From Oculina patagonica (taxonomy: Eukaryota), in the NCBI RefSeq assembly GCF_052425735.1, contig NC_135768.1:6820001-6884000 (forward strand): a stretch of 64,000 bases of DNA. The letters are read 5' to 3'. The notes beneath the pieces were generated by a model. It saw only the letters and a list, made by a program, of their open reading frames with translations, was not told where the DNA came from and made no database searches. How positions within the stretch are numbered: position 1 is the stretch's first letter; every line of letters begins with the position of its first letter. Below are positions 5,007 through 39,769 of this stretch, in pieces. The translations under genes and the position numbers were made by a program.

Positions 5007-5460
5007 AGTAGTAATGTACTACACTCTGAGGCAAAAATTTTTGCCACAGAGATTTAGTACATACTACTTCCAACACTGGATTCGAATTTCGGGTTGAAAA
5101 TATGGATTCAAATTATGGGGCTGAAAATATGGATTCAAATTATGGGGTTAAAATATGGGGTTAAAACTGAACCAACACTGGATTCAAAAAAAATGGATTC
5201 GAATTATGGGAAACCGAGCGGAGCGTTTCATAAGCATTAAATAAAAATTTTAATGCTTATAGCAACTTATGATCAAATATAATTTAAAAAATTATATTTG
5301 TTCCTTAATAATTTATAGTCTGAGACAAGTCTGAAAACCATGCCTGGAAAAAACAAATGCTCTTATAGTTTAATTTTAAATTTTAGATCCAAACCCTGGA
5401 AACCATGCCTGGAAAAAACAAATGCTCTTATAGTTTAATTTCAAATTTTTGGAAACAGTG
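5007..5460 (+). repeat. Polinton left TIR
   Basis: Inverted match to ~39290-39769; internal tggattcaaa tandem units and repeated caaatgctcttatagttta boxes; inner boundary approximate. Confidence 0.85.
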
Positions 5461-5464
5461 CGTT

Positions 5465-6739
5465 TTATATTGTTTGTAAATCCTTCATAGGTATCCAGCT
5501 GTTAAATTCATCACTATACCCCTTCCATTTAACAAGAGCTTGTTTCTTTTTATAATCTCTCCGGACCACTTTATCAATTCTGAATACGTCCTGTTTTGCT
5601 TTTAATAATTCAGGTTCATAAAAACTTCCTTGTATGTCTTCATTATTGAGATCTTTCAATTTGTAAGTAATAGGATTAGTGTATTGTATCTTATCGATTG
5701 TAAAAATTTCTTCGGTCCAGTTTGGCGTGTACCCTTTATCGAAAATATTTCTTTTATACTTCGATATTCGAACCTTATCACCTATTTTGAATTTCAGTTT
5801 CGGTTTTGATGTTTCCATATCACCGTATAAATTGAAATATACTAAGCCTTCATTCTTTTTCCTCGATGCTTCTACGGGTGTCATTTTAATGCTTGAGTGT
5901 TTGGTATTATTATACTGTTTTAACAGTATAATAATACCAAACACTTTAACAGTAGGCAGCGTGGCCTAGTGGTAGGGCGCTGGACTTGTAATCCGGAGGT
6001 CCCGGGTTCAAATCCACCTCCCTGCCACTAGATGGATTTGTGTTTGGTGGTCCCAGATTCAAATTCTCCACGCTTTGTAAATAGCCAGCTGGTTAGCCTC
6101 CTGCCAGCTGGGATTTAACTAGTTTATGTTTGATTTATAATATTTGTTTATATATTTACAGTGTCCCCAATTAGCACAGCCGTGCTAAATACATTGACAC
6201 TTAAATAAAGTTATTTATTTATTTATTTATTACAGCTTGGGTAGCATATCGAGGTACGTCGTATTACCTTGAGCTGTAAATTGTTTCCACATTCGGGTTT
6301 TAATTGTCCTATTCCATCGTTCACAAACACTACTCTTCTCTTCGTTCTCGGTGGAGTATAGTGCTATACCATTCTTTTCCAAAAGCTCCTTCATATTTTT
6401 ATTGTAATACTCTTTCCCTTTATCAGTCCAAAGATATTGAGGTTTACGCCCCTCTTTGAATATGGTTTTGAATGCTTGAGTTACAGTTTCACCTTTTTTG
6501 TCTTTTAGAGGCACTATCCAACCATATTTACTGAAAACATCCAGTACCATGAGAAGATATCTGAATCCCTTGTTCCATCTACTGAACTGTTGCATTTCAA
6601 CCAAATCCGAACACCATATTTCGTCAATGTGATTCACAATAACACGCCGTCGAGTAAAGTTACGCTTTATTGGTTTGTGTAGTTCATTAGCTAATTTTTC
6701 TTGCCAGTTTACCCCACCCGACGGCTTTTTACGTTTTTT
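5465..6739 (-). pseudogene. Polinton RVE (c-integrase) with C-terminal chromodomain, split by a SINE
   Basis: LANELHKP, WCSDL, LWTDKGKEY, VCERWNRTIK (DDE triad), LVKWKGYSDEFNSW chromodomain; removing 5927-6235 restores MLPKLLKQYNNTKHS. Confidence 0.92.
5953..6231 (+). mobile_element. tRNA-derived SINE with Nin-like central domain
   Basis: A box tggcctagtgg, B box ggttcaaatcc, tRNA-like head with TGT anticodon loop, core ttgtaaatagccagctggttagcctcctgccagctgggatt, (TTAT)n tail. Confidence 0.85.
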
Positions 6740-7288
6740 GGCTTCTTTTTTTTTATACCCAATCCGATTTTTCTTTTACTAGCGATTAAAGCTTGTACAC
6801 CTGTTGTACCCCATGGACGATCTTTGAATGGTATTTTTGATATTCTCTTAAGCATAAGATCATCTGCCTTATGTTTATCAGCTAGTGATTTTGAATTACT
6901 GTAATCAATATCGTGCTGTTGACATATGCTATCAAGATTGTTTATTGGATCTCTATATTTAGGATCGTTAGAAGCTAATCGTTCTTTTAATTTGGTACCA
7001 GGACCACAATAATTGTACTTTTTACCTGTAGGTGTTCTCATGTGTAATTCTCCAAGTTTTGATAAGTGTTTTTGAATATCAAGAGCACCTCCTTTACAGT
7101 GCGACGCGCCTTACCGTGGCCACCCAACAAACTTTTTTACAAGTTAGCCAATCAGGTTGCACGATTATGATTGATGGCCACGCCTCCTTGCAAAGTTTCT
7201 AAAATATAATTTACAAAAGCGGGAAACGTTTTACGGAAGAGACGAAGATTTCAACTTCAATCTACTGATATAGTACATAATTTATTTT

Positions 7289-8509
7289 TTAAACATATCC
7301 GCAGTTGCGGAAATAGTTGTAAGAGTTAGCTGCTGAAATTGACAAAACACCCTCGGCTATAGCAATTTTGGTCTCTTCCATCGCTAACAGTTGACATCTC
7401 CGAAGGAATTCCTTTATTTGATGGAAACAATATTCGCATGTATTGAGATGTGGCGAGTACGGTGGCTGGTAAATAAGCTGAACACCATAGTCATTCAAAA
7501 GGTCTCTGAGAACTGGCTCAACAAAAAGGCCATGATGAAAGCCACAATTGTCCATAACGACGCAATCCCCGCGTTCAAGAACAACACTTCTGTCTGGTCG
7601 TTGTATTTCGACAGCGTCTTCAAAAAAGTTTAGCAATTCAAATCCATTCGACGGGCCGTCAATTATATTAAAATAGTCTACTCCAAGGGCAGAGTGGAGC
7701 AAGTTGATGGTGAAATTGGCGTTTGAAGCGTATCATTGAAACTCGATTGCTTTCTCACCAACTGTGGCGTTTCCGTAGCTACGATTTCCAGTAGTTTTTA
7801 TCACACTTGCCTCATCAAAAAAATGAATTTGGTTCGGTTGAAAAGTAGAAATGGCATTGAGATACTCATTTTGGCGGACGATGTTTTCAGGAGTATTGCT
7901 TTCTAACTGTGCAACCGAGAGCTTCTTCTTGCTCATGATCAAGTCACGTCTTAATCTTTTATTTATTTGAGAGGCGCTCGGCAAGTCGTCCGCGTCCACA
8001 ACTCCATCTAACAAGAGTCTTTCCTGGATTTCGGAAGCATGAATACTTGGTTTCATAACTTTCTCGACAGACACAAATTCTAGGACTTCAGTGGTAACTT
8101 TTGGCACCAAAAAACTAGTACGAGGAATTCGCGTTGAAATGTTTTTATCATCGTACTGTTCAAGGACGTTTTGGACGTAGCCCCGGCTTATTCGAAGCTC
8201 TGTTGCTATCTGCCGTTGGCTTAGACCTGTGTGTGCTAAGTCTAATACTCTTTCTCTAATGACATCAGGGTATGCTCGTCCTGAGTCGTAGCAACCGCCT
8301 TGTCTGTTTATGCGAAGTTGAACGTTCGCTGGAGAAAAAAAAATGACAAGTCAAGTTATTTACTTTCGCTTTTCGATAAAAATGAGACTACTCTCAGACC
8401 ATACGGCTACGTATCAAAAGTCAATGTAATTATGATTAAACTCGGTGTTAGCTTGTAATGGAACCCAGCGCTGGGAACTTAACTTACGAAGGTTATAATT
8501 TCTATCCAT
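7289..8509 (-). pseudogene. Paired-domain IS630/Tc1-like DDE transposase (exons 8509-8488 and 8328-7289), one nonsense codon
   Basis: GTAAGT..polypyrimidine-CAG phase-1 intron joins MDRNYNLP to NVQLRINRQGG (paired-like); FFDEAS, VMDNCGFH, PPYSPHLNTCE; TGA at 7735-7733. Confidence 0.85.
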
Positions 8510-9455
8510 CCTAGGGCTTGTTTACATCTTGTGTAGAATGGTGGAAATGCGACTTCAAACTTAAACTGACTGCACGAAATCAAAGTCACGTCAGTAGTGG
8601 ACGGGAAGAACATTTCGCGCCACTTTTTCTAGTACCGTTTTCCTGACTATGCAAAATATGCATGAAAAACTGACGTGGCAAAATTGAACGGCGTATTATT
8701 TTTCTTGTAGTTTCACTAAGGAGTTAGCCTGAGTATCAGGCTTTTCTAAAGGGGAAGGGAGAAAGGGTAGAAGCGCGAAAGGAATTAAGGAGTTTGTATG
8801 TTTTCCTTCAGGCCGAGAACCTGAATAAGCGATGTATAAAAAGATTAATTGAACCGCAACCCAGACTATACTAAAATAAACAGTGCAAAAACAGAAGCAA
8901 TTCAAAATACAAGAAAGTTGAGAAAAACGAAAACGATGGAAATGAGTTTGATTTTCGATAAAACGTGTATAGAATTTTACATGTACTTTGTCTACAACAG
9001 CAGACCTGTGTAAATAAACGATGGAATTGCAATTGCAAACGCGGAGACTAAAATGATCAAAACAAGACTATCGTGTTCTTGAAATAATAACTTTAATTTT
9101 ACTGCGGAGCGTAAATATCTACTAAACACAACTATTACATGTAAAATTGTAATCCTGTAATTGTAAAACTGTGCAAACGATAAAATGAAGTTCAAGAACA
9201 AACACTGGTAACGCAAGAAGCAAATTACATCTTGTTGATATTAAAACCATGACAAACGGTCGCAATCCTCATTCCATGTTCAATTCAGTATTTCTAAAAA
9301 TTCAACCGAAAAAAACGATTATTTTGTTCATAAACTGTACTGATGTGAGTCGTAAACTCGAAGTTCCTTCACTTCACAAGAATGTAGAAAACGTAACATG
9401 TACTAGGAATTTGCATATAAACATAACAACTCGAGTCAGAATTACAAAACATAAT

Positions 9456-10439
9456 TCACGGGAAAAAGGAACCTCCTGTGGAATTCTGAACGGAAGGTAC
9501 ACCAACAAAGTACCTTTGAGTGGGCAAATAAGAGGAAACTTTGGCGTGATAATATTGCTCTATTATCAACGGCAGTTGCCAATCACCTTCTTCCGGTTTC
9601 CATTTTGGGACTTCATTTCGCAGCGCTCGTTGCAACACCAGTAAATCCTTGTCTAGTTTCAAACGATCCGTGTATTTAGGCAAATTCTGCAAGCGCAGAC
9701 GATTACGCATAACTGAGAAAAAACTCGACTTGGATTTTTCTCTCGCTGCCGTAAAGTTCTCTAATTCACCCTTGTGCTTTTCATGTTGCTTCTGAAGATC
9801 TTTGAGTTCTGCCTGCAATGCTGATATTTTGTTTTTTATCTCCGGATGTTTTTCTCGGATTTTGCAGTTGCTGCTGCTCTCACAAGGCGCTGCTTTACAA
9901 GTTGTTTTGGTATGGCCAGTTTGATGGCATCTGTTGCAAATCCGTCCGCGTATGGCTGCTAAAGGAGTAAGTTTTTCTTGCTCACTCTTCAGTTTTTGTA
10001 ACTCATCCACGGCGCTGCTGATTTGCACCTCAAGAACGAGTAAATTTTCTTTCATTTCATTTGCCTTCCTATCTAGCGGCTTATTCTCCTGACCGTTAGC
10101 GCTCGTTGATGGCCCCGCGGTGCCTTCAGCACATGGCGTCGTTGACAACATATTCGAGTTTAAACCAGCAGCGCTGTTGAACCGCGTACAAAGTTCCACA
10201 GGTCTCAACGGCGTTCTTCTATTTTCCGGGTCGACGAGCGCCTTTATTTCGCTTTCTAAGATCCGTTTTTCTGCCAGCAAAAGTTTCTCGGGCGAAGGGA
10301 AAAACGCATCTACGTCCCCAGGACGAAGGTATCGAAGCGACTCCAAAGTGCTAAATCCACGACTTTCAAACTGCTCGCTACATTTCTCCAATTTTAATCC
10401 TCCCGGAAGGTTCTGTAGCCATTTAAATACTTCGCTCAT
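9456..10439 (-). CDS. Transposon passenger protein: SAM-like N-terminus, coiled coils, CCHC zinc knuckle
   Basis: VFKWLQNL..LEKCSEQFESRGFSTLESLRYL (SAM-like); CNRCHQTGHTKTTC (CX2CX4HX4C); intact 327 aa inside the TIRs. Confidence 0.7.
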   Translation of the reverse strand: MSEVFKWLQNLPGGLKLEKCSEQFESRGFSTLESLRYLRPGDVDAFFPSPEKLLLAEKRILESEIKALVDPENRRTPLRPVELCTRFNSAAGLNSNMLSTTPCAEGTAGPSTSANGQENKPLDRKANEMKENLLVLEVQISSAVDELQKLKSEQEKLTPLAAIRGRICNRCHQTGHTKTTCKAAPCESSSNCKIREKHPEIKNKISALQAELKDLQKQHEKHKGELENFTAAREKSKSSFFSVMRNRLRLQNLPKYTDRLKLDKDLLVLQRALRNEVPKWKPEEGDWQLPLIIEQYYHAKVSSYLPTQRYFVGVPSVQNSTGGSFFP

Positions 10440-10810
10440 CTTAAATCGCTTGCAGGTTTACGCAAGCAGAAAACTTCGCTAAGATTCGATAACTCAAACA
10501 GTGTCAACTTAATTGTTTATACTGAAGATTGTACATGTTTTCGTAAACACGAACTTTGCAAGGAGGCGTGGCCATCAATCATAATCGTGCAACCTGATTG
10601 GCTAACTTGTGAAAAAGTTTGTTGGGTGGCCACGGTAAGGCGCGTCGCACTGTAATAAATCTGCTTTTATTTTTTCTGCATATTTGACAAACTGATTTTT
10701 CCATAAGCCGACCATTTTTAGCTTTTACCTTTTTAGAGTTTATTGATTTGGTGTGTTTTTTACACGATAGACAATACGATTGACACATATATATATATAT
10801 TGATTAGATA

Positions 10811-11226
10811 TTAATCACAGTATGTGTTTCGCCATTTTTTGGATTTCTTATCCCAAATAGTAGCAGAGCATGAAGGATCTTGGTGTTCACTTGGAGATGT
10901 CCAGAATTTCTTTGAGAATAAACCATTCTTCTTATTAAAAGCCCCTTTAGCGATATTGCCCGACCAGTAACGTTTAAGCAAATCTTTATCGCCTCCGGTA
11001 GCACCCATGATAGCCGATGCTAAGTCTTGAGCCTGTTGAAACCCTGGAATCTTTTCGCCGATTTTTTTGTTGATCGTTTCACCAACACCACGACCAGTTT
11101 GTTTATTTTTCACAAAACGAGTTTTAGTTATACCACATTCCGAACAAGTACATTTCATCATAAGTCGCTCTCAGATCCTTCTTTACACAGAGTCTGTTTT
11201 TTCTGTTTTACACAATACGATTTCAT
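10811..11226 (-). pseudogene. Second Polinton zinc-ribbon small protein, frameshifted near 11165
   Basis: MKSYCVKQKK.. start at 11226 is out of frame with MMKCTCSECGITKTRFVK; paralogous to the PLA2 N-terminus. Confidence 0.6.
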
Positions 11227-11237
11227 ATATAATATGA

Positions 11238-11723
11238 TTACATATTTTTGAAATAATTGCTTATAAAACGTTCATTGTACAATGTGTCACTCATTGATAA
11301 GGGTTTCATTATATCATAAAAGCCTTTATCGTACACCAATGCTTGATGCAAGAAATACAATGCATAATACCCGCATAATATGCTCTGAATATGTTGATAT
11401 TGCGTTGTATTATAAAATATCTGTTTAATACCATCTTGTTCAGCCCGTTGTTTAAATTCATCGGGATATGGCATGCCAAATGAGTCGAAGTACCACAATG
11501 TTTCTTTCTTATGAGCAGGGACGCAACAAGTCCAATGAGTCCCGACACCTTCATAGCTGTCTAAATTTATGATACATGGACTATGCTTTTTAGGCATGTG
11601 TTCATCTCTGCTATATATTCCTTTAATATTGATTTTTAAATACTTACACCATCTCAGGAGATCAATGTTACTCAGAGGCTTTTTGACAAATGCAGGCTTT
11701 CTTACTTTCTTTTCGGTTTTAAA
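11238..11723 (-). CDS. Adenain-like cysteine maturation protease (no ATG for its conserved N-terminus)
   Basis: IINLD..GTHW, YFDSFG, QYQ..CGYY motifs; frame open upstream through KPLSNIDLLRW to the A-run at 11724-11734; first ATG at 11597. Confidence 0.9.
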   Translation of the reverse strand, partial: FKTEKKVRKPAFVKKPLSNIDLLRWCKYLKINIKGIYSRDEHMPKKHSPCIINLDSYEGVGTHWTCCVPAHKKETLWYFDSFGMPYPDEFKQRAEQDGIKQIFYNTTQYQHIQSILCGYYALYFLHQALVYDKGFYDIMKPLSMSDTLYNERFISNYFKNM

Positions 11724-12204
11724 TTTTTTTTTTTGGAAGCACTAATCCACCTGTTCTAAGAAATTTATCATATTCACCCCATGATCCTATTACTGGAGGA
11801 GATCTGTAAGATAATACATCTTTCTTACTTGGTAGTTTGATTTTACCACCGTTTTTTGATCTTTGTTTTCTAATGTTTGGTGATGGATAATAAGGGTATT
11901 CTATTTGCATTCCTGTACCTCCTTGATTATCAGGAGTGACTTGAATTCCTTTTCCAATCACCTTTCGAATTTTACTTATTTGTGTTTTAGATAAACTCAA
12001 TGTAATCCCTTTACCCTTACTTTTTAGTTTATTATACCGTGTTATTTGTCTTTCTGTAAGGTATAACTCAGTATTACCCTTCTTTTTGATCTGATTCTTG
12101 TTAATTAATAAACTGATTTCACTTGAATTTTTGATTGCTCTGGCTAGCTTTTTTATTTGACCTTCTGAAAGAGGAATATATGTTGAAATATATTTTGTGC
12201 TCAT
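11719..12204 (-). CDS. Basic Polinton core (pVII-like) protein
   Basis: Lys/Arg-rich; LSEGQIKKLARA start; several GxG/GG motifs; lies between MCP and protease. Confidence 0.65.
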   Translation of the reverse strand: MSTKYISTYIPLSEGQIKKLARAIKNSSEISLLINKNQIKKKGNTELYLTERQITRYNKLKSKGKGITLSLSKTQISKIRKVIGKGIQVTPDNQGGTGMQIEYPYYPSPNIRKQRSKNGGKIKLPSKKDVLSYRSPPVIGSWGEYDKFLRTGGLVLPKKKI

Positions 12205-13330
12205 AGTCTTGCTCTATATATAATAGTGTTAGATTAAATATTACGTAACAATAAATGTAAAATTTAATATGAATTAGATTTTTTCATATCATAATTTATA
12301 CCACAATAAGTTCATTCCCAATTTTATCAATTACGATTCTTTCCTCATAAAGAACTACAGCGTAAATCATATATTGGTCAGTAGCTTGTACATTCAATCG
12401 ATAATGAAACAATAACTGTTTTGGATCATCAGTAACCGATTCCTTATGATTTCTTAAATCGAAATAGATAACAGGAAATAATTCAGAATAATTTTGTAAA
12501 TTTAACTGAGTTCCTGTATTGTAGTCGTTGGTTCTGAATGCATATTCTTGAATGTCATTATATAATCTTGGTTTAAAATCACAATCATACTCTAGTTCTG
12601 GAGTAAAATATGAATTCCCAAGTTGCAATCGACAGGTAGATAATTTACATGCATCATCGCCCGAATTTACTTTAAAAGTATCAAAAATGAAGGGGTTTTC
12701 TAGTTCATTATTACTCTTGTTTCTTTGCAGATATACAAAAACATGTTTTGCATTTTTAATAGCTGGTGTAATTTGATATACCCCAGAAATAGCAGTTGTT
12801 GGTGATGAATGCTTAATAAACTCCCTTAAATATGTCCATTTTGATGCTGTTAAAAAGGTATTATTAACTAATTTTTGTCCAGCTGATGTAAAGTTCAAAC
12901 GTGGTAGCCATAACTGAAAATCTAGAACCACATATCGAGTTTCATCACCCGCAACACGATAAATGAACTCTCTGTCATCATTTAATGTTATATTTAGCTC
13001 GATTTGCATAGGGGGAAGCATTTTGTCGCGGAGTTCTTGAAAAAATGAAAAACGATTTAACGGAATGCTTGCGTATACGTCTTTTGATTGTGAACACAAT
13101 TCAGCTCTTTTAATTGCTCCTACTTTTGGGGCTTCTCTCATATCACCTGCTAATACTCTATCGTCGAGATACCAATTGAAATTAGTACCAATGGTGTTAG
13201 CATAGTCCTGCGAAAATTCAAGCAATCCTTTTATGAAAGAAATTTTATGTAGGTCATTACCATCGTACACTTTTTTACCTCCACTGGTTATCATTACGTG
13301 ATTGATCATACTGGTACTATCATTGATCGT

Positions 13331-19097: not shown

Positions 19098-19371
19098 ATC
19101 GTAGACGTTAATACTGGGGTTTGTAAATTATTGGCTACAATATTAGCTCCATCTGCCTTTTTTTGAAGTTTATATTTCACGATAATGTATCCATTATACC
19201 AATCAAACCAAGAAGAACGATCAGTCATATTGAATATATAGCCTGTTTTTTCCTGGTATAAGCCATTTGCCGGCTGAATAATAGGCGTAGATAAATTGAA
19301 CCTTAGATAATCTGTTTTTGCAACATTGTCTATGCTTCTAAAACTCATTATATATTATTAGTTTAGATAAT

Positions 19372-19617
19372 TTACTTCAACTGTGCTAATCGTTTCAAAA
19401 TAAGATCCCCAGCTTTTTCACTTCTATTTAACACGGTTTTTAAACTTTTCTTTTGTGCTTTGATTATTGGTGATTTATTGATATCTTTTACCATTTTTTT
19501 AGAATATTGTCCGATATTTGATAAATCATTAGTTATTAAACCTGATCCTTTATGACGATATTGATATAAACCTTTTTTAGGGTTATAAAATTTTGACCAT
19601 TCGTATACTCGATTCAT
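19372..19617 (-). CDS. Small basic Polinton virion-block protein
   Basis: 81 aa; KGSG motif; TCTA motif upstream; tightly packed between penton and MCP. Confidence 0.65.
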   Translation of the reverse strand: MNRVYEWSKFYNPKKGLYQYRHKGSGLITNDLSNIGQYSKKMVKDINKSPIIKAQKKSLKTVLNRSEKAGDLILKRLAQLK

Positions 19618-30778: not shown

Positions 30779-30883
30779 ATGAAAACTCCAGATTTAATAC
30801 ATGAGATACTGAAAACTATTGAACGATTGATCCAAAATATAAGGAAATTGTATAACAGAATGAAAAATAGAAATAAAACATAG
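30779..30883 (+). CDS. 34-aa amphipathic basic peptide (below ORF-track cutoff)
   Basis: MKTPDLIHEILKTIERLIQNIRKLYNRMKNRNKT; fills the intergenic gap and has its own TCTA motif. Confidence 0.5.
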   Translation: MKTPDLIHEILKTIERLIQNIRKLYNRMKNRNKT

Positions 30884-30901
30884 TCTAACCATATAATATA
30901 T

Positions 30902-31390
30902 ATGCCGAAACAACGCAAAAATATATTCGAATGGAACCATATTAGTGACAAGTTAAATCAAGCGCAAATTCAAGAATTAAAAGAATACTACAGAGTATAC
31001 CATAAGAAGTGTTGGTGTTATAAAAAAGCTACAAAAAGCTTTAGAAGGCTGAAATTAATAGGCAATTCGCTGGCTATTTTATTCGCTTCAGGAGGCATAG
31101 TATCGTCCATTTCAACTGGTGGTATCAGCCTGATTGCAATCAGCACGGGAGCTTTATTGATACAAGGCTGGCTTCAGCATCAGAATCTCGATTTAAAAAT
31201 TCAAAATGGAATTTTTGCTTATCAAAGCTATCAGCATTTGCTTAATACAATAAAATTCATGTTAAGAACAGGGGAATATGAACTATCCAATATCTTTTTA
31301 ATGATGAAAACTACTGACGACTACATATGCGATACCGGTCCAATAATCGATCGGTATCTGCTCAAGTATGATGATAAATTTACCAAATAA
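30902..31390 (+). CDS. Polinton membrane protein (hydrophobic hairpin)
   Basis: Gly/Ala-rich hydrophobic stretch LIGNSLAILFASGGIVSSISTGGISLIAISTGALLI; TCTA motif upstream. Confidence 0.7.
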   Translation: MPKQRKNIFEWNHISDKLNQAQIQELKEYYRVYHKKCWCYKKATKSFRRLKLIGNSLAILFASGGIVSSISTGGISLIAISTGALLIQGWLQHQNLDLKIQNGIFAYQSYQHLLNTIKFMLRTGEYELSNIFLMMKTTDDYICDTGPIIDRYLLKYDDKFTK

Positions 31391-31934
31391 TCCGTGCGAT
31401 CTGGGCCGATTTTAATGCTAAAATCTCACCCCAATACCGATCATTAAAAGCTCGCGTTTTTTTTGATTTAGTAACACAGATGAAATTGTATGGGATACCG
31501 AGCATTTTAAACAGCTGTCTTATAATATATTTCGTTGAGATCATCCTCTTTCTTCTTTTATTTATAGATGGAAGAATAGTATCGATCTCATGAAACACTT
31601 TGTAAATCTTATCGCGCTGATTATGAGACAATTGAACTCCATTTTTAATACATAAATCGTTTAAAACATTCTCAATGTGGTATTTACGATGATAGATGCT
31701 TTTACGCCATATCTTGTGTCTGTTCTCGTAAAAATCAAAATACTCGCTAACATATTCATAATTCTGAGCCCCGCAATTTCGACATACTGTTGAATAGGCA
31801 TCTTCTAAAATATCCTGTTTATCACAGCAATGGTCAACAAAATTATCTCCTGCATATAATAACTCATTGCAAAAAATACAAGAACCCTCACCCATTATTT
31901 TTAAATCGCTATGTATCTGTGTATCACAAAACAT
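31380..31934 (-). CDS. Poxvirus/NCLDV late transcription factor VLTF3 (A2)-like protein
   Basis: Zn-ribbon CRNCG; YHRKYH; F..I..RRKRMIS..YII..LFKMLG; KSKKT..NDRYWGEI pattern recalls VLTF3; ATG at 31934. Confidence 0.7.
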   Translation of the reverse strand: MFCDTQIHSDLKIMGEGSCIFCNELLYAGDNFVDHCCDKQDILEDAYSTVCRNCGAQNYEYVSEYFDFYENRHKIWRKSIYHRKYHIENVLNDLCIKNGVQLSHNQRDKIYKVFHEIDTILPSINKRRKRMISTKYIIRQLFKMLGIPYNFICVTKSKKTRAFNDRYWGEILALKSAQIARIIW

Positions 31935-32464
31935 CTCATATATAAATATATTTATATAAAGATGGTTCAAGGCAATAGAATTAAGTTATATCGTCTAAAA
32001 TGCAATTATGGAAACACTCGTAATTGAATACGCAACGCATATATTTCGTCCTTTTTCGGAAAATCCCAGCTAAATTCACGATACAATAACCAATTTTATC
32101 AACACTTTGTTAAGGTCGTTTTCGCTCACAACCATCGCAGACTTCGGCATCGAATAAACTTTTTGAGTAAATTTTACTCAAAAAGTTTATAATAAAAAAA
32201 ATTCTTACTCATGACCTTGAAAAGTAATGATGACTCATTTTCCTGGGAGATCCCCTATAGTTGATTGGCAGAGTAATACAGCTTCACAAAAATATTTCAC
32301 AAAATGAATAACGTTTCACAAAAATATTTCACAATTGTGAATCAAAATATGTAGTTTTCGATTGGCTAAAAAATCATATGAAGAAGCATTTTAAATATTA
32401 ATCATTTCAAAACCGTTGGGGATCCAGCCCTGATTTGCATAGACTGAATAAATATGTATTTATA

Positions 32465-32758
32465 TCACAAACATTGCTTCTGAGAAGACACATGCTGATC
32501 CTTACGAGGTCTTCCACGTCGCCGTTTCAGTTGTGTATGTTCAATCTGGTCTTCAAGTATACACTCTAAACATATATGATTTTTGTCTTCATTTGATATT
32601 TCAGATCTGCTGTTATGGTCTGAAGATAGCATTTTAATAATACTAATATTAGCGTCAAGGATGCTCTGAATACACCACATTTTATTAATGAAAACTATAT
32701 CATTCGAGCTTTCATCAGCTTCTGGTTGGTGTTTGATATTTAATGTAATATCACTCAT
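32465..32758 (-). CDS. Small protein with AT-hook
   Basis: KRRRGRPRK near the C-terminus; ATG at 32758 in an AT-rich context. Confidence 0.5.
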   Translation of the reverse strand: MSDITLNIKHQPEADESSNDIVFINKMWCIQSILDANISIIKMLSSDHNSRSEISNEDKNHICLECILEDQIEHTQLKRRRGRPRKDQHVSSQKQCL

Positions 32759-32922
32759 TCTATATATATTAATAAAGAAAATAATTATCTGTTTATATCT
32801 ATCACTTAAACGCATTATAAAAAACATATAAAGAGATGAATCTATATTATATTGAATTACACAGTATAATATACGCTGTTATCGCTGTTTTGACAGCCAA
32901 AAATATGCTTGTTTCTGGCTAT

Positions 32923-33675
32923 CTATTTGCAGTTCTGTCTGTGATTATACTTCGATGGGTTTCTCATTGATTTATTGCATTTTGGGCAAGTAAACTCCTT
33001 CTGTCGCCATCTATCTAATGCTTCCTTTCGACGTTCCTTTTTGTCTTCAGGTGAAACCTTTTTCGGTCGAATATTGGCTGATTTGATGCAATCATCAGGC
33101 ATGTCTTCTTTGTTTACATATTCAAATTTATATCTTTCTCCGTCCTTTTTCGAGATACCGCTATGGCAGTTATTCAGGTTTGAACAGACCATTTGCACAA
33201 TACCTACATTGATTCCAAGATGCTTTTCTACTACATACATACTGTTGAAATACAATTCTTCTTTCGTTCTTTGGTTGATAGCCTTGATATATCGTCGGTT
33301 CTTACAATTGTTTTTAACAAATGTATAATCACGCGTTTTTGCGCTCTTCATACAATTCTCCTGCTGACTCATCAATTGCAAGTTACACAATCGATTGTCA
33401 GTCTTGTCATTATTAATATTATCAATCACCATTCCATCTGGTATTATATCGTTGAAACATTCCCATACAAATCTATGAACCTGGTAGCATTTGTGGCCTG
33501 ATTGACCATGTTTTCTAACACTACAACTCATATAACCGCTATGATTCTTGGTCCCCTTATGAGGCGGTGCTCTCTTAAAAATATGTATAATATTCCCTTC
33601 AATATCAGCTCCGTAAAGATCATACATTGGGTGAATATAGTATTCAATATCATTAATTCTCATTGTCATTATCAT
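32923..33675 (-). CDS. HNH homing-endonuclease-like protein with NUMOD-like region and C-terminal zinc finger
   Basis: VHRFVWECF..VIDNINNDKTDNRLCNL; CPKC..H..C. Confidence 0.8.
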   Translation of the reverse strand: MIMTMRINDIEYYIHPMYDLYGADIEGNIIHIFKRAPPHKGTKNHSGYMSCSVRKHGQSGHKCYQVHRFVWECFNDIIPDGMVIDNINNDKTDNRLCNLQLMSQQENCMKSAKTRDYTFVKNNCKNRRYIKAINQRTKEELYFNSMYVVEKHLGINVGIVQMVCSNLNNCHSGISKKDGERYKFEYVNKEDMPDDCIKSANIRPKKVSPEDKKERRKEALDRWRQKEFTCPKCNKSMRNPSKYNHRQNCK

Positions 33676-33772
33676 ATTAATTTAAGTAAGTACCAAACGT
33701 TTAAGTACTTTATGAGAAATATTTTTTAAAAAGCTACTTATAGGATTGATGATATATATATAATAAACAAAA

Positions 33773-36700
33773 ATGGAAAATTTTATCTCACCCAATATTA
33801 GTATGAACGAATCTGAGCTCAATAAACTATCTAAAACCGACCTCATAAAACTGATATTATCGCTAAAAGCCGACCAACCAAGGATATACAAACCACGACC
33901 TCCAAAAGCAACCCCACGACGAAACGTTAAACAAAGGGTTCAAGATTATGAAGCCAATATAATATTACCACCTCCTGAATTTAGGGATAATTTCATACCA
34001 ATAGCTAAGCCAAGAACTAAGGTCTCAAATGAATTTAATTTCGATGACAGTCTATTTGATACAACATCCAATGACCAACCTTTATTCAAAATAACTGAAA
34101 TCGGAAGTAAATTAAATAAAAAATTCAATTCTTTTACCAATGAATTCAAGGTAAATGTTCGGAAAAATTTCATAGGTAATAAAAATGAGATTTTCAGTGT
34201 ATTTGAAAAATTGTTTGAAATGACGTTAAAAAAAAGGCAGTTAAAAGGTAATGATAGAATCAGATTGATAATTTCAAACGATCAATTAACCCATCCTATA
34301 TCAACAAGAATGTTAAAAGTTTCTGATTTCAAGTTAAATCAACTTTCAGATATAATCAACACATTGGAGTACAAAGCAATAGATTTAGAAAAATGTAAAA
34401 TTATTGTTCAATCTGTTAAAATACCGGCAGGGCAAGCTCGTTTATATTTATCAAAACAAACAGTGAATAAAAAGCAATGCATTATCACAATAAAAAATAA
34501 TGACACAATTTGTTTAGCCAGGGCGGTTGTAACAGCTTATGCTAATCTAAAAAAGGAGAATTACACCAAAACTCAGTTGAAAGATGGTTTCAATAAAAGC
34601 CGAAAACTACAAGAAATTCAAGCCAAAGAACTTCATAATAATGCTAATGTTGAAATTAACGATTATGGGCATTGTCTTGAAGATGTCAATACCTTCGCTA
34701 AATATTTAGATATTGAGATAAATATCATAGATTCTGAACAGTTCAATGAGATTATATATACAGCTAATAATGGTAAAACAGACAAAATTTATTTATTCAA
34801 ATCACGAAATCATTTTGATGTCATAAAATCGATGACAGCCTTTTTAGATGTAGCATATTACTGTCATTCTTGCAAAAAAGCTTATACGAGACGTGATAAA
34901 CACAAATGCCCCCAAAAATGTCTATCTTGTTTCAAATATTTTCCAGATGGTAATAAATGTAATGGAAAAGACATTAGATGTAATAAGTGCAATCGTGTTT
35001 TTCATGGTAATAGTTGTTTTAAAAACCATACTAGTAAGCGATCGAAAAAAGATAGTGATGATTCAGTATGTAGCAGTGTAGCAAAATGTTTAAAATGCAA
35101 TCAAATCATTCTAAAACCATATATTAAAATACATAAATGCGGTTTCAAAATGTGTAATAATTGTAATAGCTATTGCGAAAGTAAACATAAATGTTTCATG
35201 AAAAAGATCAAGTGTAAGGGTGGAAATTGTACAATAGATAACGAAAAACCTTGCAGATTAAATAAAAGCATTCCTAAAAAAGATTATTGTTACCCATGCA
35301 AAACGTATAATGAAAAATATTTATTTTTCGATTTTGAATGTACACAAAACACTCAAATACACCACGTCAATTTAGCTATCTGTCATGATTTCAATGGTAA
35401 TGAATCAATCTTCAATGATATCAACAGTTTTTGTAATGGTATTCTTAATGAAAAATATAAAGGATATACACTTTTGGCTCATAATAGTAAAGGGTATGAC
35501 AGTCATTTTATACTAAAATGGTGTATTGATAATGGTTTTAAACCTTACTGTATTTACAATGGTGCAAAAATAATGATGATGGAAATAGCACAGTTAAGGA
35601 TCAAAATAATCGACAGCTTAAATTTTATTCAGCAACCCTTATCATCGTTTCCTAAAACTTTTGGTTTAAGCCAGCTTAAAAAAGGTTACTTTCCACATTA
35701 TTTTAACAAACTGTGTAATCAAAACTATATTGGTAATATGCCTGCAAAAAAACATTATGGGTTTAATCAAATGAAAACACAAGATAGAGAGAAATTTTTA
35801 CAATGGTTTAATGAGCGTGTTAATGAAAATTATGTTTTCGATTTCAAAAAAGAAATAATTGAATACTGTAGGTCAGATGTTGATATATTAAGAAGATGTA
35901 TGTTAAAATTCAGGCAAGATTTCATGAATCAAGAAAATATCGATCCACTAAAATACATTACAATAGCCGGTGTTTGTATGGCTATTTATAGAGGGAATTA
36001 TATGCCAAAAAATACCATAGCTGTGGTTGATAATGTTGTTCAAACAGAAAACCATAGTGCAGTCAGTATTGCATGGCTTGATTACATAAGTAAGAAAAAT
36101 AAAATTAAAATTCAACATACCTTGGAAGGGGGTGAAAAAGTTATCAATTGTCTCAATAACAAATTAAAAGTCGATGGTTTTTGTGAGTCCGCAAATAGTG
36201 TTTATGAATTCCAAGGTTGCTTCTGGCATGGATGCCCAGATTGTTACAAACCTGATGTAATCAATAATAAGAATCAATGCGATATGGGTACTTTATATAA
36301 TAAAACACAAATAAAAAATAACAAAATAACGAGTGCTGGTTACAGCCTCATTGAGATGTGGGAATGCAAGTTGAAAAATGACAAAAGTTTTCAAAAATAT
36401 TATAAAAATGATTGGAATAGAGAAGTAACGACTTCTCTAAACCCTAGAGATGCTTTTTTCGGCGGACGGACAAACGCTGTAAAACTTCTGTATAAATTCA
36501 AAGAAGGTGAATATGGTAAGTATCTTGATTTCACCTCCTTATACCCGACTGTCCAGTTCTACAAAAAATATCCCATTGGTCATCCTGAAAAAATTATATC
36601 GCCAGAAAAATACGATAAGAAATGGTATGGATTCATAAAATGTAAAATTTCAGCACCAAGTGGGTTATACCATGCTGTTTTACCTCAGAAAATCAAATGT

Positions 36701-37768
36701 GAAAAGGCTGAAAAATTGATGTTTCCTCTGTGTATATCATGTGCTAAAACAAAGCAACAAGAAAAATGCCAACATAGTGAAAGTGAGCGAGCATTTATAG
36801 GCACATGGACAACCGATGAGGTCAATAAAGCCATTGAAAAAGGTTATAATATCATAAAAATATATGAAGTATGGCATTTTGAGAAGTCATCCGACGATCT
36901 ATTCAAAGGATACATTAAAAAATTCATGAAACTAAAACTTGAATCAACAAAATATAATTTCAAAAATGACAAAGAAGAAATGATATTCAGAAATAAAGTC
37001 AAAACAAATTTAGACATTGAATTAGGTGAATTAAATGAAAATTCAGGTTTACGTGCTATTGCTAAGATGTGTTTGAATAGTCTTTGGGGTAAATTTGGAC
37101 AACGAAATAATATGAATCAGTGTAAATACGTTACTGATATAAATGAATTTTATCAATTAGTTCTCGATGATACCATTGACAATTTGAATATCAATTTCAT
37201 AAATGAAGAAATGGTACAGATGAGTTACGCTTATAAGGACCAGTTTGTTGATAATTCCTACAATACCAATATCTTTATAGCCTGTTTTACGACAAGCAGT
37301 GCACGGTTAATGTTGTATGAAAAACTAGACTATTTAGATAAACAGGTATTATATTTTGATACAGATAGTATTGTGTATATTGAATCCCAAAATAGTAAGG
37401 TAATAGAAACTGGTAACATGTTAGGTGAATTAACAGATGAGTTAGACGGTGATGTTATAAAAGGTACCTTCGTTTCAGGAGGACCAAAGAATTATAGTTT
37501 CATATATGGCGATAATAAACAGAAATGTGTTATTAAAGGATTTTCCCTTAATCATGAAAATTCTCAGATACTAAATCACGCAAATATGATTAAGATGGTA
37601 AAGGGCGATATCAAAGAACTCACATTAGTAAATGAAAATAAGATAACAAGACAGAGTAAACAAATTGTTAACAAATATGAGGAAAAGGTATACAGTTTTG
37701 GATACGATAAGCGTGCAATAAAATATATAGATGAAACCTGTATAGATACAATACCATATGGTTATTAA
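33773..37768 (+). CDS. Protein-primed family B DNA polymerase with OTU-like and Cys-rich N-terminus and Vsr-like nuclease insert
   Basis: Exo FFDFE, AHNSKGYD, YCRSDV; Pol DFTSLYP, KMCLNSLWGKFG, YFDTDS; insert VDGF..YEFQGCFWHGC; NDTICLARA..HFDVI. Confidence 0.97.
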   Translation: MENFISPNISMNESELNKLSKTDLIKLILSLKADQPRIYKPRPPKATPRRNVKQRVQDYEANIILPPPEFRDNFIPIAKPRTKVSNEFNFDDSLFDTTSNDQPLFKITEIGSKLNKKFNSFTNEFKVNVRKNFIGNKNEIFSVFEKLFEMTLKKRQLKGNDRIRLIISNDQLTHPISTRMLKVSDFKLNQLSDIINTLEYKAIDLEKCKIIVQSVKIPAGQARLYLSKQTVNKKQCIITIKNNDTICLARAVVTAYANLKKENYTKTQLKDGFNKSRKLQEIQAKELHNNANVEINDYGHCLEDVNTFAKYLDIEINIIDSEQFNEIIYTANNGKTDKIYLFKSRNHFDVIKSMTAFLDVAYYCHSCKKAYTRRDKHKCPQKCLSCFKYFPDGNKCNGKDIRCNKCNRVFHGNSCFKNHTSKRSKKDSDDSVCSSVAKCLKCNQIILKPYIKIHKCGFKMCNNCNSYCESKHKCFMKKIKCKGGNCTIDNEKPCRLNKSIPKKDYCYPCKTYNEKYLFFDFECTQNTQIHHVNLAICHDFNGNESIFNDINSFCNGILNEKYKGYTLLAHNSKGYDSHFILKWCIDNGFKPYCIYNGAKIMMMEIAQLRIKIIDSLNFIQQPLSSFPKTFGLSQLKKGYFPHYFNKLCNQNYIGNMPAKKHYGFNQMKTQDREKFLQWFNERVNENYVFDFKKEIIEYCRSDVDILRRCMLKFRQDFMNQENIDPLKYITIAGVCMAIYRGNYMPKNTIAVVDNVVQTENHSAVSIAWLDYISKKNKIKIQHTLEGGEKVINCLNNKLKVDGFCESANSVYEFQGCFWHGCPDCYKPDVINNKNQCDMGTLYNKTQIKNNKITSAGYSLIEMWECKLKNDKSFQKYYKNDWNREVTTSLNPRDAFFGGRTNAVKLLYKFKEGEYGKYLDFTSLYPTVQFYKKYPIGHPEKIISPEKYDKKWYGFIKCKISAPSGLYHAVLPQKIKCEKAEKLMFPLCISCAKTKQQEKCQHSESERAFIGTWTTDEVNKAIEKGYNIIKIYEVWHFEKSSDDLFKGYIKKFMKLKLESTKYNFKNDKEEMIFRNKVKTNLDIELGELNENSGLRAIAKMCLNSLWGKFGQRNNMNQCKYVTDINEFYQLVLDDTIDNLNINFINEEMVQMSYAYKDQFVDNSYNTNIFIACFTTSSARLMLYEKLDYLDKQVLYFDTDSIVYIESQNSKVIETGNMLGELTDELDGDVIKGTFVSGGPKNYSFIYGDNKQKCVIKGFSLNHENSQILNHANMIKMVKGDIKELTLVNENKITRQSKQIVNKYEEKVYSFGYDKRAIKYIDETCIDTIPYGY

Positions 37769-37797
37769 AAGATAAAAATTTTATACAGTATATTTAT

Positions 37798-38736
37798 ATG
37801 AAAATCGTTTTGCTTGGTCACGTAGATCATGGAAAAAGCACATTAGGGGGTAATCTCATATACAACTCCAATACTATCAATAAACGGGATATTGATAAAA
37901 TCAAAAAGCAGGCCGATCAACTCAAAATGTCAAAGCAATGGTTAGCACATATCTTAGACGAGGATGATAATGAAAGGTTGAAAGGAAAGACGTATTCCTT
38001 CAATATAGTTCAATTAGAGTATCAGGGTAATATTTTTGAAATCATCGATGTACCAGGTCATAAAGAACTAGTTAATGAGATGATATATGGAAGTTCACGA
38101 GCAGATCTAGCGGTATTGGTTATATCTATACGTAAGGGTGAATATGAAGCTGGCCTTTTAGGTCAATCTTTAGAACATATTATGATTGCTCGTGGAATGG
38201 GGTTAAAATCTCTGGTTATTGCTCTTAATAAAATGGACACAATTAATTGGGATTTTGATGAATACAACCGTGTTGTTACTGATTTAACTAGAAAGATTAA
38301 AAGATTCCGTTTCAAACATATCATTTTTGTACCTATATCAGCATTCCGTGGAGACAACGTTATAAAGCGATATAACAACCCATTGGTTAAATATTCATTA
38401 ATCGAGGCTATAAACACTATTATTATAATACCTCGCGAGACTAAGTTGATTAAACCAAATGATAATAAGATAAATAGTCGTTTTCTCTTCTATCATATCG
38501 AGAACCTAATCACTACGGGTTATGTTTGTAAATTACATACTAATATTAAATTATATGATGCAGAGTTTGTTAAAATACATAACAGTAAGCTGCCATTTGT
38601 GACTCAGAATAATTCTAAAGGGAAACTAATAAATGTCGTTTTAAAATTAAATACTAATGATGCAATTAATGCTAATGTTATCTTGAGAGATGGAAATAAA
38701 ACGATTGCCATAGGCATTTTAGAATATGATGATTAA
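37798..38736 (+). CDS. eRF3-type (eEF1A/HBS1 family) translational GTPase, G domain + domain III only
   Basis: G1 GHVDHGKS, G2 ERLKGKT, G3 DVPG, G4 NKMD, G5 SAF; ends LRDGNKTIAIG; intronless, AT-rich, inside the TIRs. Confidence 0.88.
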   Translation: MKIVLLGHVDHGKSTLGGNLIYNSNTINKRDIDKIKKQADQLKMSKQWLAHILDEDDNERLKGKTYSFNIVQLEYQGNIFEIIDVPGHKELVNEMIYGSSRADLAVLVISIRKGEYEAGLLGQSLEHIMIARGMGLKSLVIALNKMDTINWDFDEYNRVVTDLTRKIKRFRFKHIIFVPISAFRGDNVIKRYNNPLVKYSLIEAINTIIIIPRETKLIKPNDNKINSRFLFYHIENLITTGYVCKLHTNIKLYDAEFVKIHNSKLPFVTQNNSKGKLINVVLKLNTNDAINANVILRDGNKTIAIGILEYDD

Positions 38737-38784
38737 ACGCACAAAATTCATATAAAAAAAATATTATTTTCTATTATATATATA

Positions 38785-39042
38785 ATGGAAATACCAATAC
38801 CCACGGAGCAAATAAAGAATGGAAATAAGATTATTTTTATTAAAAAATCCACATATAAGGGATGGCCTGATTATGATATAAAAAAGCATTCAAGAACTTT
38901 AATTAATGTGTCTAAGGATGATGAACTCGAATACATTATGATAAAGCGTAAAAAATTTCTCATTATACTTGATAATGAGATAAGCAATAATCAAAATTTT
39001 GAACCTGAGCTTACTGAGGCAACAAAAGATATTAATAACTAA
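38785..39042 (+). CDS. Small hypothetical Polinton protein
   Basis: 85 aa; TCTA and TATATA upstream of ATG. Confidence 0.5.
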   Translation: MEIPIPTEQIKNGNKIIFIKKSTYKGWPDYDIKKHSRTLINVSKDDELEYIMIKRKKFLIILDNEISNNQNFEPELTEATKDINN

Positions 39043-39289
39043 TATGATTTCAAGATTTTTCAATTAAACTATAAGAGCATTTGATTTTCATTATGTCAAT
39101 GAGGTTTGTTTTAAACGCACTAATATGCAATATTTTAAATTAAACTATAAGAGCATTTGTTTTTTCAAGGCTTGGTTTTACAGATTTGTTTTTCCTATTT
39201 TGTCTAATGAAATCTTTAGATTTCATTAATCATAAAAGAAAATTCTGCTCCGCTTGGAATCCGAGATTTGGTTCTGAGATTTAAAATTT

Positions 39290-39769
39290 AACTATAAGAG
39301 CATTTGTTTTTTCCAGGCTTGTTTTTGATCACATGGTTGAATCAAGGTTTCATTTAAACGCACTGTATTCAAAAATTTTAAAAAGAGTATAAGAAGTTTT
39401 TTCCACGCTTGGTTTTCAGATTTGTCTCAGATTATAAATTATTAAGGAACAAATATAATTTTTTAAATTATATTTGATCATAAGTTTCTATAAGCATTAA
39501 AATTTTTATTTAATGCTTATGAAACGCTCCGCTCGGTTTCCCATAATTCGAATCCATTTTTTTGAATCCATTTTTTAAATCCATTTTTTGAATCCATTTT
39601 TTGAATCCATTTTTTCACCCCCATAATTTGAATCCATTTTTTGAATCCATATTTCATCCCCATAATTTGAATCCATTTTTTGAATCCATTTTTGAATCCA
39701 GTGTTGGAAGTAGTATGTACTAAATCTCTGTGGCAAAAATTTTGCCTCAGAGTATAGTACATTACTACT
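39290..39769 (-). repeat. Polinton right TIR
   Basis: Inverted copy of the left end with a different number of tandem gaatccatttt units; inner boundary approximate. Confidence 0.85.

Follow-up and report, generated by a model that had tools for sequence, protein, structure and literature searches.

Whether the capsid genes of animal Polintons are transcribed independently or require a helper virus is an open question in the field. A Polinton in the 64,000-nucleotide stretch of Oculina patagonica DNA analyzed here (the window) bears on this question. The initial annotation took its TCTA motifs, late transcription factor, and translational GTPase as signs of an endogenous virus that is reactivated by, and possibly defends against, a giant virus (NCLDV). 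That the element is a Polinton in an animal genome was borne out by Wnt genes and by the named homologs of its major capsid protein (MCP), which come from stony corals.

The Polinton occupies positions 5007 to 39769, as defined by terminal repeats and a 6-bp target duplication. Its terminal inverted repeats (left, 5007 to 5465, plus strand, with internal repeats of 13-bp period and of about 65 bp; right, 39045 to 39769, minus strand, with a 13-bp-period array) start with AGTAGT at 5007 and at 39769, and both are flanked by ATTACA (5001 to 5006 and 39770 to 39775, plus strand). Removal of four insertions leaves a net length of about 18,598 bp, in agreement with the approximately 18.6 kb first proposed, and the native segments are AT-rich as claimed (GC, 0.31 to 0.36, versus 0.39 to 0.42 in the flanks). 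The insertions are a tRNA-derived SINE with a (TTTA)n tail and a short inverted duplication (5927 to 6233, plus strand, bounds approximate), a Tc1/mariner-like DNA transposon with a TA duplication and DDE_3 and paired-box-like pieces (7095 to 10654), and two plus-strand BEL/Pao LTR retrotransposons, one at 13331 to 19097 (identical 129-bp LTRs, ATCGT duplication, 1793-aa open reading frame [ORF]) and the other at 22760 to 29279 (identical 540-bp LTRs, ATAGG duplication, 1794-aa ORF). The integrase, DUF5679-PLA2, MCP, and fiber genes are each interrupted by one of these nested transposons, and the window copy is therefore unable to build particles alone. It is a broken copy of a multicopy Polinton lineage in what is likely a coral genome. 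Close sister capsid genes are numerous in the genome, with at least 90 MCP matches of 86% or higher; in 81 of 90 the reading frame stays open over at least 427 aa. The element class and its VLTF3 are already described, VLTF3 having been published in coral Polintons.

Pfam matches within the Polinton are to pPolB, an rve integrase with a chromodomain, an A32 ATPase, PLA2, VLTF3, HNH, and an EF-Tu-type GTPase, and the Polinton hallmarks are present (terminal inverted repeats, 6-bp duplication, PF03175 PolB, PF00665 plus PF00385 integrase, and PF04665 ATPase). The minus strand carries a retroviral-type integrase with a C-terminal chromodomain (5465 to 6700; Pfam rve and Chromo), which is split by the SINE here and is a single ORF of 273 to 274 aa in sisters; a DUF5679-PLA2 gene identified by Pfam (6709 to 10788; TCTA at −20), which is split by the Tc1/mariner-like transposon and has both domains within one ORF in a sister; and a small conserved gene (10811 to 11226) whose ORF at 10811 to 11161 lacks the first 29 residues present in sisters (145 to 152 aa). 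The adjacent gene (11238 to 11740), which from its catalytic motifs, position, and size we take to encode an adenain-type cysteine protease, overlaps at an A-run the end of a gene for a 161-aa basic protein (11719 to 12204; TCTA at −29). These are followed on the same strand by the retrotransposon-split MCP gene (12296 to 19348; 427 aa in sisters; TCTA at −19), an 81-aa conserved gene (19372 to 19617; TCTA at −19), a likely penton gene assigned by position and size (19637 to 20407; TCTA at −17), and a 340-aa conserved Polinton gene (20420 to 21442; TCTA at −21). On the plus strand are the A32-type packaging ATPase (21547 to 22182), a likely fiber gene split by a retrotransposon (22205 to 30757; about 680 to 720 aa in sisters; weak tail-fiber match; TCTA at −22), and a 162-aa SLATT-like protein with two membrane helices, scoring below the Pfam cutoff (30902 to 31390; TCTA at −18). 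The VLTF3-family gene (31380 to 31934), a small conserved gene whose product has what is presumably an AT-hook-like end (32465 to 32827), and an HNH endonuclease gene (32923 to 33675) are on the minus strand, and the protein-primed DNA polymerase B (PolB) gene with an open 1331-aa frame (33773 to 37768), the GTPase gene (37798 to 38736), and an 85-aa cargo ORF that also adjoins the opposite end in two sisters (38785 to 39042) are on the plus strand. The MCP, penton, and protease could not be matched directly to Pfam or to PDB sequences: MCP and penton profiles matched no PDB sequences, and the penton and protease matched nothing in Pfam, PHROGs, or PDB. The MCP was named through homologs 28 to 32% alike that match PF21738 (2 of 7 aligned), which points indirectly to a double jelly-roll fold. 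Of the full entry and assembly kit first proposed, PLA2 and the ATPase were recovered by Pfam and the MCP through homologs, but the PLA2, MCP, and fiber genes are split, the penton and protease are likely assignments made apart from any library match, and no gene for a WCA protein was identifiable in the element.

The upstream regions divide the genes into two groups. TCTA lies within 35 nt of the start codon in 8/8 virion-module genes versus 1/7 others, with gene classes drawn after the motif had been noticed; it sits in AT-rich flanks, 17 to 29 nt before the eight virion genes. PolB, VLTF3, ATPase, GTPase, and HNH have no TCTA upstream. Shuffled sequences gave a mean of 1.07 of 8 genes with TCTA, and eight were reached in 0 of 20,000 shuffles. 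The TCTA-containing motif before virion genes is thus nonrandom. In both sequence and spacing the window motif agrees with the late promoter of CroV and ChlorV, a promoter described as common only to those two viruses (PMC13196603). The early motif of the same viruses, AAAATTGA, occurs once in the element, inside PolB, and no promoter of the element's genes contains it. A different motif, ACTTAAAG, was found upstream of PolB in 16/16 sister upstreams and in a variant form in the window. Searches of the open literature returned no report of promoter motifs in animal Polintons, and a search for a Polinton TCTA late promoter led only to the EMALE paper.

Comparison with sister lineages suggested that TCTA as such is not what the lineages conserve. 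Counts were made over distinct upstream sequences from lineages of the same genome, with motifs defined after looking and leaving out four loci from another, distant Polinton group whose genes could not be named. TCTA was present in 19/20 upstreams of the element's own lineage. In a second VLTF3-bearing lineage TCTA occurred in 3/10 (226 of 2,000 shuffles were as high) and RT[ACG]TAAC in 9/10 (0 of 2,000); in a third the values were 2/8 for TCTA and 7/8 for RT[ACG]TAA[ACT] (0 of 2,000), and in a fourth the motif was found in 2/3, not above chance. Upstream of MCP and penton in sister lineages, TGTA or TATA replaces TCTA. Because the sister VLTF3 lineages use ATGTAA or ATATAA at the place of TCTA, the common core is AT-N-TAA. 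Across three VLTF3 lineages the MCPs are only 28 to 47% alike, the VLTF3s are 61 to 78% alike to that of the window, and the PolBs are often 82 to 88% alike. The lineage in which VLTF3 was not detected had TCTA in 0/21 upstreams, RT[ACG]TAA[ACT] in 2/21, and a T-run in 10/21 (0 of 2,000); the association of motif with VLTF3 compares three related VLTF3 lineages with one lacking it. TATATA adjoins the start in all lineages.

The VLTF3-like factor was confirmed by a PF04947 match at 32.9 bits (cutoff, 25). It has a Cys-rich N-terminal half and a helical C-terminal half of cyclin/TFIIB type. In the viral fold search VLTF3s take the leading places, none at an E value under 0.001, and alignment of the C-terminal half with cyclins, TFIIB/TFB, and Brf gave Z scores of 6 to 7.4; values under 8 may reflect merely a common helical arrangement. 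Open VLTF3 frames occur in at least 67 places in the genome, and there are about 200 homolog clusters. No VLTF2 partner was identified. Mriyaviruses, which are thought to be nuclear, retain VLTF2 and VLTF3 and carry no RNA polymerase (PMC11253617). The gene-map legend for Tetraselmis elements, of which some strictly depend on a helper, also lists VLTF3, and VLTF3 is therefore no proof of autonomy. Judged from sequence, the signal upstream of the capsid genes is likely read by the element's own VLTF3.

The GTPase (312 aa) has the G1 to G5 motifs with the catalytic His, followed by domain III; domain II is missing. The label "eRF3-like" was too specific for this EF1-family protein: the best solved-structure matches (archaeal EF1A, eRF3, eEF1A, and Hbs1) score similarly, the three domains of eRF3 are not all present, and its clade is separate from the eRF3-like rows of the tree, which we presumed to be such from G1 motifs or source names. 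Over the entire chain it superimposes with TM-scores of 0.80 to 0.87 on short GTPases of Terrestrivirus, Hyperionvirus, and Catovirus. Its closest non-Polinton relatives of known context are giant-virus proteins, although among tree rows P0002 to P0037 genomic context is known for P0031 only. In the tree, rows P0017 and P0018 form the group closest to the Polinton GTPases as their sisters. An alternative is that the gene came from the coral's eRF3, HBS1, or eEF1A and was shortened within the Polinton, its giant-virus likeness being due to convergence or AT-rich bias; several tree rows do have biased composition or long branches, and the tree has no host-animal row. We consider this very improbable, since full-length identity including domain III is 38 to 44% to proteins from giant-virus MAGs versus about 37 to 38% over short host exons, the identical loss of domain II is seen in the Terrestrivirus, Hyperionvirus, and Catovirus proteins (333 to 345 aa), and the two-domain family is supported at 100/99 apart from cellular paralogs. 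The GTPase was therefore likely taken from giant viruses, as far as such phylogenies can tell, and its nesting among their proteins implies that element and giant virus once shared a cell. It was found in seven near-full places and one fragment (19/19 candidates scored), compared with 90 or more MCP matches, and evolves under purifying selection in a dN/dS comparison that leaves out one pair with a frame offset (L005). A metagenome scan with the GTPase gave only cellular factors among the matches listed. No report of a GTPase in animal Polintons was found in the open literature, and a translation factor GTPase in a Polinton appears to be unreported in the literature searched.

The HNH gene has its Pfam match, but its profiles are of phage type and it occurs in only 3/21 VLTF3-bearing sister loci, and it was rejected as a giant-virus trait. 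A perfect hairpin does exist, but the longest one (5896 to 5945) consists of integrase coding DNA duplicated in inverted orientation where the SINE joins it, is absent from nine sister loci matching there, and was set aside as an insertion by-product. Another, a conserved 37-bp palindrome of opposed 13-bp units (32154 to 32190), lies about 220 nt upstream of VLTF3, away from gene ends; covariation support for an RNA stem there was rejected, as the changes favor neither strand consistently. The best stem at 18/18 gene ends was 5 to 11 bp, none longer, and the Sputnik-like rule of hairpin polyadenylation signals at gene ends does not apply here.

We hypothesize, with about an even chance of being right, that this is a nuclear Polinton whose own VLTF3 drives its late promoter and whose cargo dates from a past giant-virus coinfection. 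The lineage would likely run a two-stage gene program of its own inside the host nucleus and need no helper virus. Host RNA polymerase II would transcribe the early genes (PolB and its neighbors), which have a motif of the ACTTAAAG type, and VLTF3, with its cyclin/TFIIB-type fold, would activate the virion genes late by recognizing AT-N-TAA 12 to 30 nt upstream of them. As optional cargo, likely acquired from a giant virus that had infected the same cell, the two-domain GTPase would modulate translation or ribosome quality control. In the available part of one coral expression study, Polinton capsid genes formed an expression cluster of their own in control and stressed colonies, and no screen for giant-virus markers is reported (PMC11131425). 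Among 21 sequencing runs, none that contains the element is listed as RNA; contigs from X1, X3, X7, X8, and X10 span the element along with repeats of the host flank and the terminal repeats and may therefore be DNA, and none came from X15. In a rival scheme, which we regard as unlikely, host factors, namely, TBP on the adjoining TATATA plus a host DNA-binding protein, read an ordinary promoter specific to the lineage, VLTF3 has another role, and the element spreads mostly as a transposon. The TATATA shared by all lineages fits this scheme, as does the lineage without detected VLTF3, whose own virion-gene motif (T-run plus RTATA) means that a class-specific motif needs no VLTF3; MCP and VLTF3 queries also found no relative in IMG/VR viral contigs, in a pattern-limited search. 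However, the many open VLTF3 frames and homolog clusters, the open MCP frames in 81 of 90 sister matches, and the persistence of AT-N-TAA over capsid modules only 28 to 47% alike that share a common VLTF3 module argue against it.

A virophage lineage, in which a giant-virus RNA polymerase transcribes the late genes, possibly with VLTF3 as adaptor, and infection reactivates copies that may lower giant-virus yield, is in our view doubtful rather than implausible. The TCTA in AT-rich flanks resembles that of CroV late genes and type-4 EMALEs (PMC8547959, PMC5294985), the starts lie very near the motif as in compact cytoplasmic viruses, and the GTPase is nested among giant-virus proteins. Precedents exist in Gezel-14T, Tetraselmis PLVs, and insect PLVs within entomopoxvirus occlusion bodies (PMC11296320), and Mimiviridae-like genes lie within a Hydra assembly (PMC5294986). 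Yet TGTA or TATA stands before MCP and penton in sister lineages, PolB, VLTF3, ATPase, and GTPase lack TCTA whereas mavirus has the CroV motif on all genes (PMC6723459), and neither AAAATTGA promoters nor gene-end hairpins are present. Spread within the nucleus fits the 90 or more copies that sit in chromosomes with target duplication, only a minority of copies carry the GTPase or HNH, and the window copy is unable to make capsid, so the proposed NCLDV dependence, reactivation, and defense are not supported. A search of the genome for an endogenous NCLDV capsid matched nothing, as did its control, and so carries no weight either way. Its boldest form, a true virophage of a Mimiviridae-like coral virus with a CroV-type late promoter, a VLTF3 that steers the helper polymerase, a helper-derived GTPase lacking domain II, and about a hundred copies serving as an inducible antiviral reservoir, is less probable again. 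On the nuclear Polinton reading, AT-N-TAA travelling with VLTF3 would bear both on autonomy and on whether a TFIIB-like viral factor works with host polymerase II, and the GTPase would point to gene flow from giant viruses to an animal element.

Among known systems, the stony-coral polintoviruses (Polintoviricetes; Stephens et al. 2024, PMC11131425) and PLA2-bearing adintoviruses (Starrett et al. 2021, PMC8502044) share with the element its TIRs, pPolB, rve integrase, ATPase, MCP, PLA2, DUF5679, likely penton and protease, and, in a subset, VLTF3, at tens to hundreds of copies per genome. Neither a virion-gene promoter motif nor a translational GTPase is reported in the available text of the two papers, and "GTP" and "elongation factor" have no hits in the main text of PMC11131425. 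Gezel-14T, Tetraselmis Tsv-S2/S3, and the entomopoxvirus-associated PLVs (PMC11296320) are likewise small Polinton-like genomes tied to an NCLDV, and since the last occur in animals, a coral case would not be the first animal claim; helper-dependent PLVs differ in having been found together with their giant virus. Gezel-14T uses AAAATTGA, which is absent from the element's promoters, and illustrates that dependence on a helper can go together with another promoter class. Mriyaviruses (PMC11253617) resemble the element in having VLTF3 without any RNA polymerase and in their inferred nuclear transcription but have VLTF2 and an NCLDV-type MCP and lack pPolB and rve integrase. Short giant-virus EF1-family GTPases (Terrestrivirus A0A3G4ZN03, Hyperionvirus A0A3G5A9G5, and Catovirus A0A1V0SA87; 310 to 350 aa) likewise consist of a G domain and one beta-barrel. 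The available part of Zinoviev et al. 2019 (PMC6582330) describes eRF3-like activity for Marseillevirus and Lausannevirus proteins that keep two beta-barrels; the element's GTPase, known from sequence, has one and sits in an 18.6-kb element without eRF1. Mavirus and the type-4 EMALEs of Cafeteria (PMC8547959, PMC6723459) are, like the element, integrating, 15 to 20 kb long, equipped with pPolB and rve integrase, marked by TCTA in AT-rich flanks shortly upstream of start codons, and host to nested retrotransposons. EMALE types likewise differ in motif. The element departs from mavirus and Sputnik in its different PolB motif and in hairpins away from gene ends, and from mavirus in a motif whose third base varies between sister lineages, its own VLTF3, and a Polinton-type MCP. 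Mavirus bears its motif on all genes and has a proven helper in CroV, whereas the coral element, which has no known helper, bears it on the virion genes only.

The Polinton lies at positions 5007 to 39769 of the window, with inverted termini starting AGTAGT and ATTACA flanking both sides. It spans 34.8 kb against a net ~18.6 kb (18,598 by subtraction) because four elements are nested in it: a SINE within the integrase gene, a Tc1/mariner-like transposon (7095 to 10654) within the DUF5679-PLA2 gene, and two BEL/Pao retrotransposons, within the MCP gene (13331 to 19097) and the fibre gene (22760 to 29279). In both retrotransposons the two LTRs are identical and the frame is open (1,793 to 1,794 amino acids), and their insertion is therefore recent. 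Pfam matches covered pPolB, integrase, chromodomain, A32 ATPase, PLA2, VLTF3, HNH, and an EF-Tu-type G domain. The MCP was identified via homologs that match PF21738, the named ones coming from stony corals; two further genes are putatively penton and protease, from position and sequence motifs. With 87 Wnt matches in its genome the host is an animal, and the origin of the named MCP homologs makes a stony coral likely. The initial annotation had proposed a full entry and assembly kit; in this copy, integrase, DUF5679-PLA2, MCP, and fibre are each split by an insertion, and with these breaks the window copy alone would be unable to build capsids or integrate. Around the element lie clustered host genes (1 to 4200 and 42789 to 63818) that are intronless, histidine N-acetyltransferase-like, and ~310 amino acids long. 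The putative protease frame (11238 to 11760) remains open 5' of the first ATG, and at an A-run it overlaps the end of a 161-amino-acid gene; the overlap recurs in most sister copies in a shifted frame, with a fused ORF in one. Programmed frameshifting or polymerase slippage is possible at this site.

The initial annotation had suggested seeking uninterrupted sisters. In the host genome, at least 90 full-length MCP matches at 86% or more were found (117 of 325 candidates scored), and 81 of the 90 retain a stop-free open frame of at least 427 amino acids. There were also at least 67 VLTF3 matches (150 of 229 candidates scored) and at least 150 A32 matches. Sequence stretches taken around 35 places were compared. 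Lineage A is the window's own; lineages B and C have VLTF3 and MCPs ~46% and 28 to 31% alike to the window's, respectively; and lineage E is one decayed element with VLTF3. Lineage D has a different PolB, and VLTF3 was not detected in it by tblastn with the window protein, by profile on 4 of 7 loci, or as a Pfam row, some of the D loci being partial. One further, distant Polinton group was left unnamed. Modular exchange among the sisters is strong: the same PolB-VLTF3-SLATT block is joined to capsid modules 28 to 47% alike, and ATPase, protease, and PolB variants interchange within a single lineage.

The TCTA motif claimed at the outset is real. With AT-rich flanks, it stands 17 to 29 nt 5' of the start codon in all eight virion-module genes counted in the window (integrase, protease, and a shortened small gene, whose true starts are uncertain, were omitted) and before one of seven other genes; shuffled upstream regions carried it in a mean of 1.07 of 8, and none of 20,000 shuffles reached 8. 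For the sisters, patterns were picked after inspection, the sequences are related to one another, and the counts cover only ORFs whose first residues are typical of their family. TCTA occurs there in 19/20 distinct upstream sequences of lineage A, and in 3/10 of lineage B and 2/8 of lineage C, both at chance level. A wider pattern persists in B and C (10/10 and 7/8; 0/2,000 shuffles each), with ATGTAA before MCP and penton and ATATAA before other genes, and so the conserved core is AT-N-TAA. The motif was present in 2/3 sequences of lineage E, which is not significant, and lineage D gave TCTA in 0/21, the wider pattern in 2/21, and a T-run in 10/21. In this small sample, AT-N-TAA accompanies VLTF3. 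A further TCTAA, outside these statistics, lies 17 nt 5' of a ~34-codon ORF between the fibre and SLATT genes (30763 to 30885).

VLTF3 itself (31380 to 31934, minus strand) scores above the Pfam cutoff and has ~200 close homolog clusters, most on long ENA contigs. Its predicted model, reliable in the C-half only, aligns there to cyclins, the Rb pocket, TFIIB/TFB, and Brf at Z scores of 6 to 7.4, a level at which likeness may be mere common arrangement. Against viral models, the top match was a Tetraselmis virus protein (E 0.004), followed by VLTF3s of giant viruses (NCLDV) at E 0.03 or worse; the comparison thus gives no hint that the gene was recently acquired from an NCLDV. A conserved palindrome upstream of the gene (32154 to 32190) consists of two opposed 13-bp units, of which sisters carry one to three or more in tandem; the terminal arrays (39540 to 39700 and 5077 to 5166) likewise repeat every 13 bp, around a TTTTTGA core. 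A single DNA-binding protein may serve both the element ends and the VLTF3 upstream region.

The GTPase (37798 to 38736, plus strand; 312 amino acids) retains G1 to G5 and the catalytic His, and its predicted fold (pLDDT 89) joins a G domain to a single barrel. It had been called eRF3-like; a GTPase is indeed present, but EF1A and Hbs1 align just as eRF3 does, all passing over ~110 residues that correspond to domain II, which is absent. The nearest viral models are Terrestrivirus, Hyperionvirus, and Catovirus proteins of 333 to 345 amino acids, alike in fold (TM 0.80 to 0.87). The top two IMG/VR loci are giant-virus metagenome-assembled genomes (41 to 42% over the full length), and another IMG/VR locus is close to a family-B DNA polymerase. 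In a tree of 72 rows, after 31 redundant, short, or CysN-like rows were dropped and with no host-animal row, 15 Polinton-type rows formed a clade (100/99) within a two-domain family (100/99), with the metagenome-assembled rows outside that clade and cellular factors separate; this placement is limited by long branches, biased composition, and a genomic context known for a minority of rows. The gene occurs at seven near-full genome places plus one fragment, adjoining the terminal repeat where seen, with dN/dS of 0.22 and 0.17 against two sisters. It is best read as retained yet optional cargo of giant-virus origin, a putative translational GTPase. Both it and an 85-amino-acid ORF are found at either end of sister elements, next to the terminal repeat. 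One sister locus, L002 (G000:C1187), apparently rearranged and with repeated ends, has a 99% identical copy with an altered P-loop glycine. Two other supposed giant-virus-type traits fell away: the HNH nuclease matches phage profiles and is present in 3 of 21 VLTF3-bearing sister loci, and the perfect hairpin at 5896 to 5945 was rejected as a viral signal, being a by-product of insertion.

We favor, at about an even chance, a helper-independent nuclear program of gene expression, in which early genes would be read by host polymerase II and the element's own VLTF3 would then read AT-N-TAA. A candidate early motif, ACTTAAAG, lies 20 to 35 nt 5' of PolB in 16/16 sister upstreams, with a variant in the window (33730 to 33772); a related ACTTAA precedes HNH and, in the VLTF3-less lineage, stands between integrase and its neighbor. 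The element may be coupled to a giant virus, and the virophage interpretation of the initial annotation, with such a virus as helper, has two real observations behind it: the likeness of the motif to the late promoter of CroV/ChlorV, and the captured GTPase. However, the replication genes are without the motif, its sequence varies from TCTA among sisters, and no further helper signal was found in the element, AAAATTGA occurring once, within a gene, and no stem longer than 11 bp at any of 18 gene ends; we regard a helper as rather improbable. That the promoters are simply host-read seems unlikely to us as well.

The element belongs to a known class, the coral Polintons. According to the portions consulted of PMC11131425, whose supplements may list a GTPase, coral polintoviruses carry DUF5679 and VLTF3 and express their capsid genes. 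Further sources, also seen in part, were PMC8502044, PMC6582330, PMC11253617, PMC11296320, PMC13196603, PMC12945077, PMC5294986, PMC5294985, and PMC6723459 and the bioRxiv preprints 2026.06.19.733378, 2025.10.09.676808, 2026.10.13.758929, and 2022.07.28.501842. Within our coverage, which lay outside subscription journals, no paper on promoter motifs or translational GTPases in animal Polintons was found. New in this element are the giant-virus-type two-domain GTPase and a virion-gene motif tracking VLTF3, the TCTA form of which is common to the window element and, in the sections consulted of PMC8547959, type-4 EMALEs.
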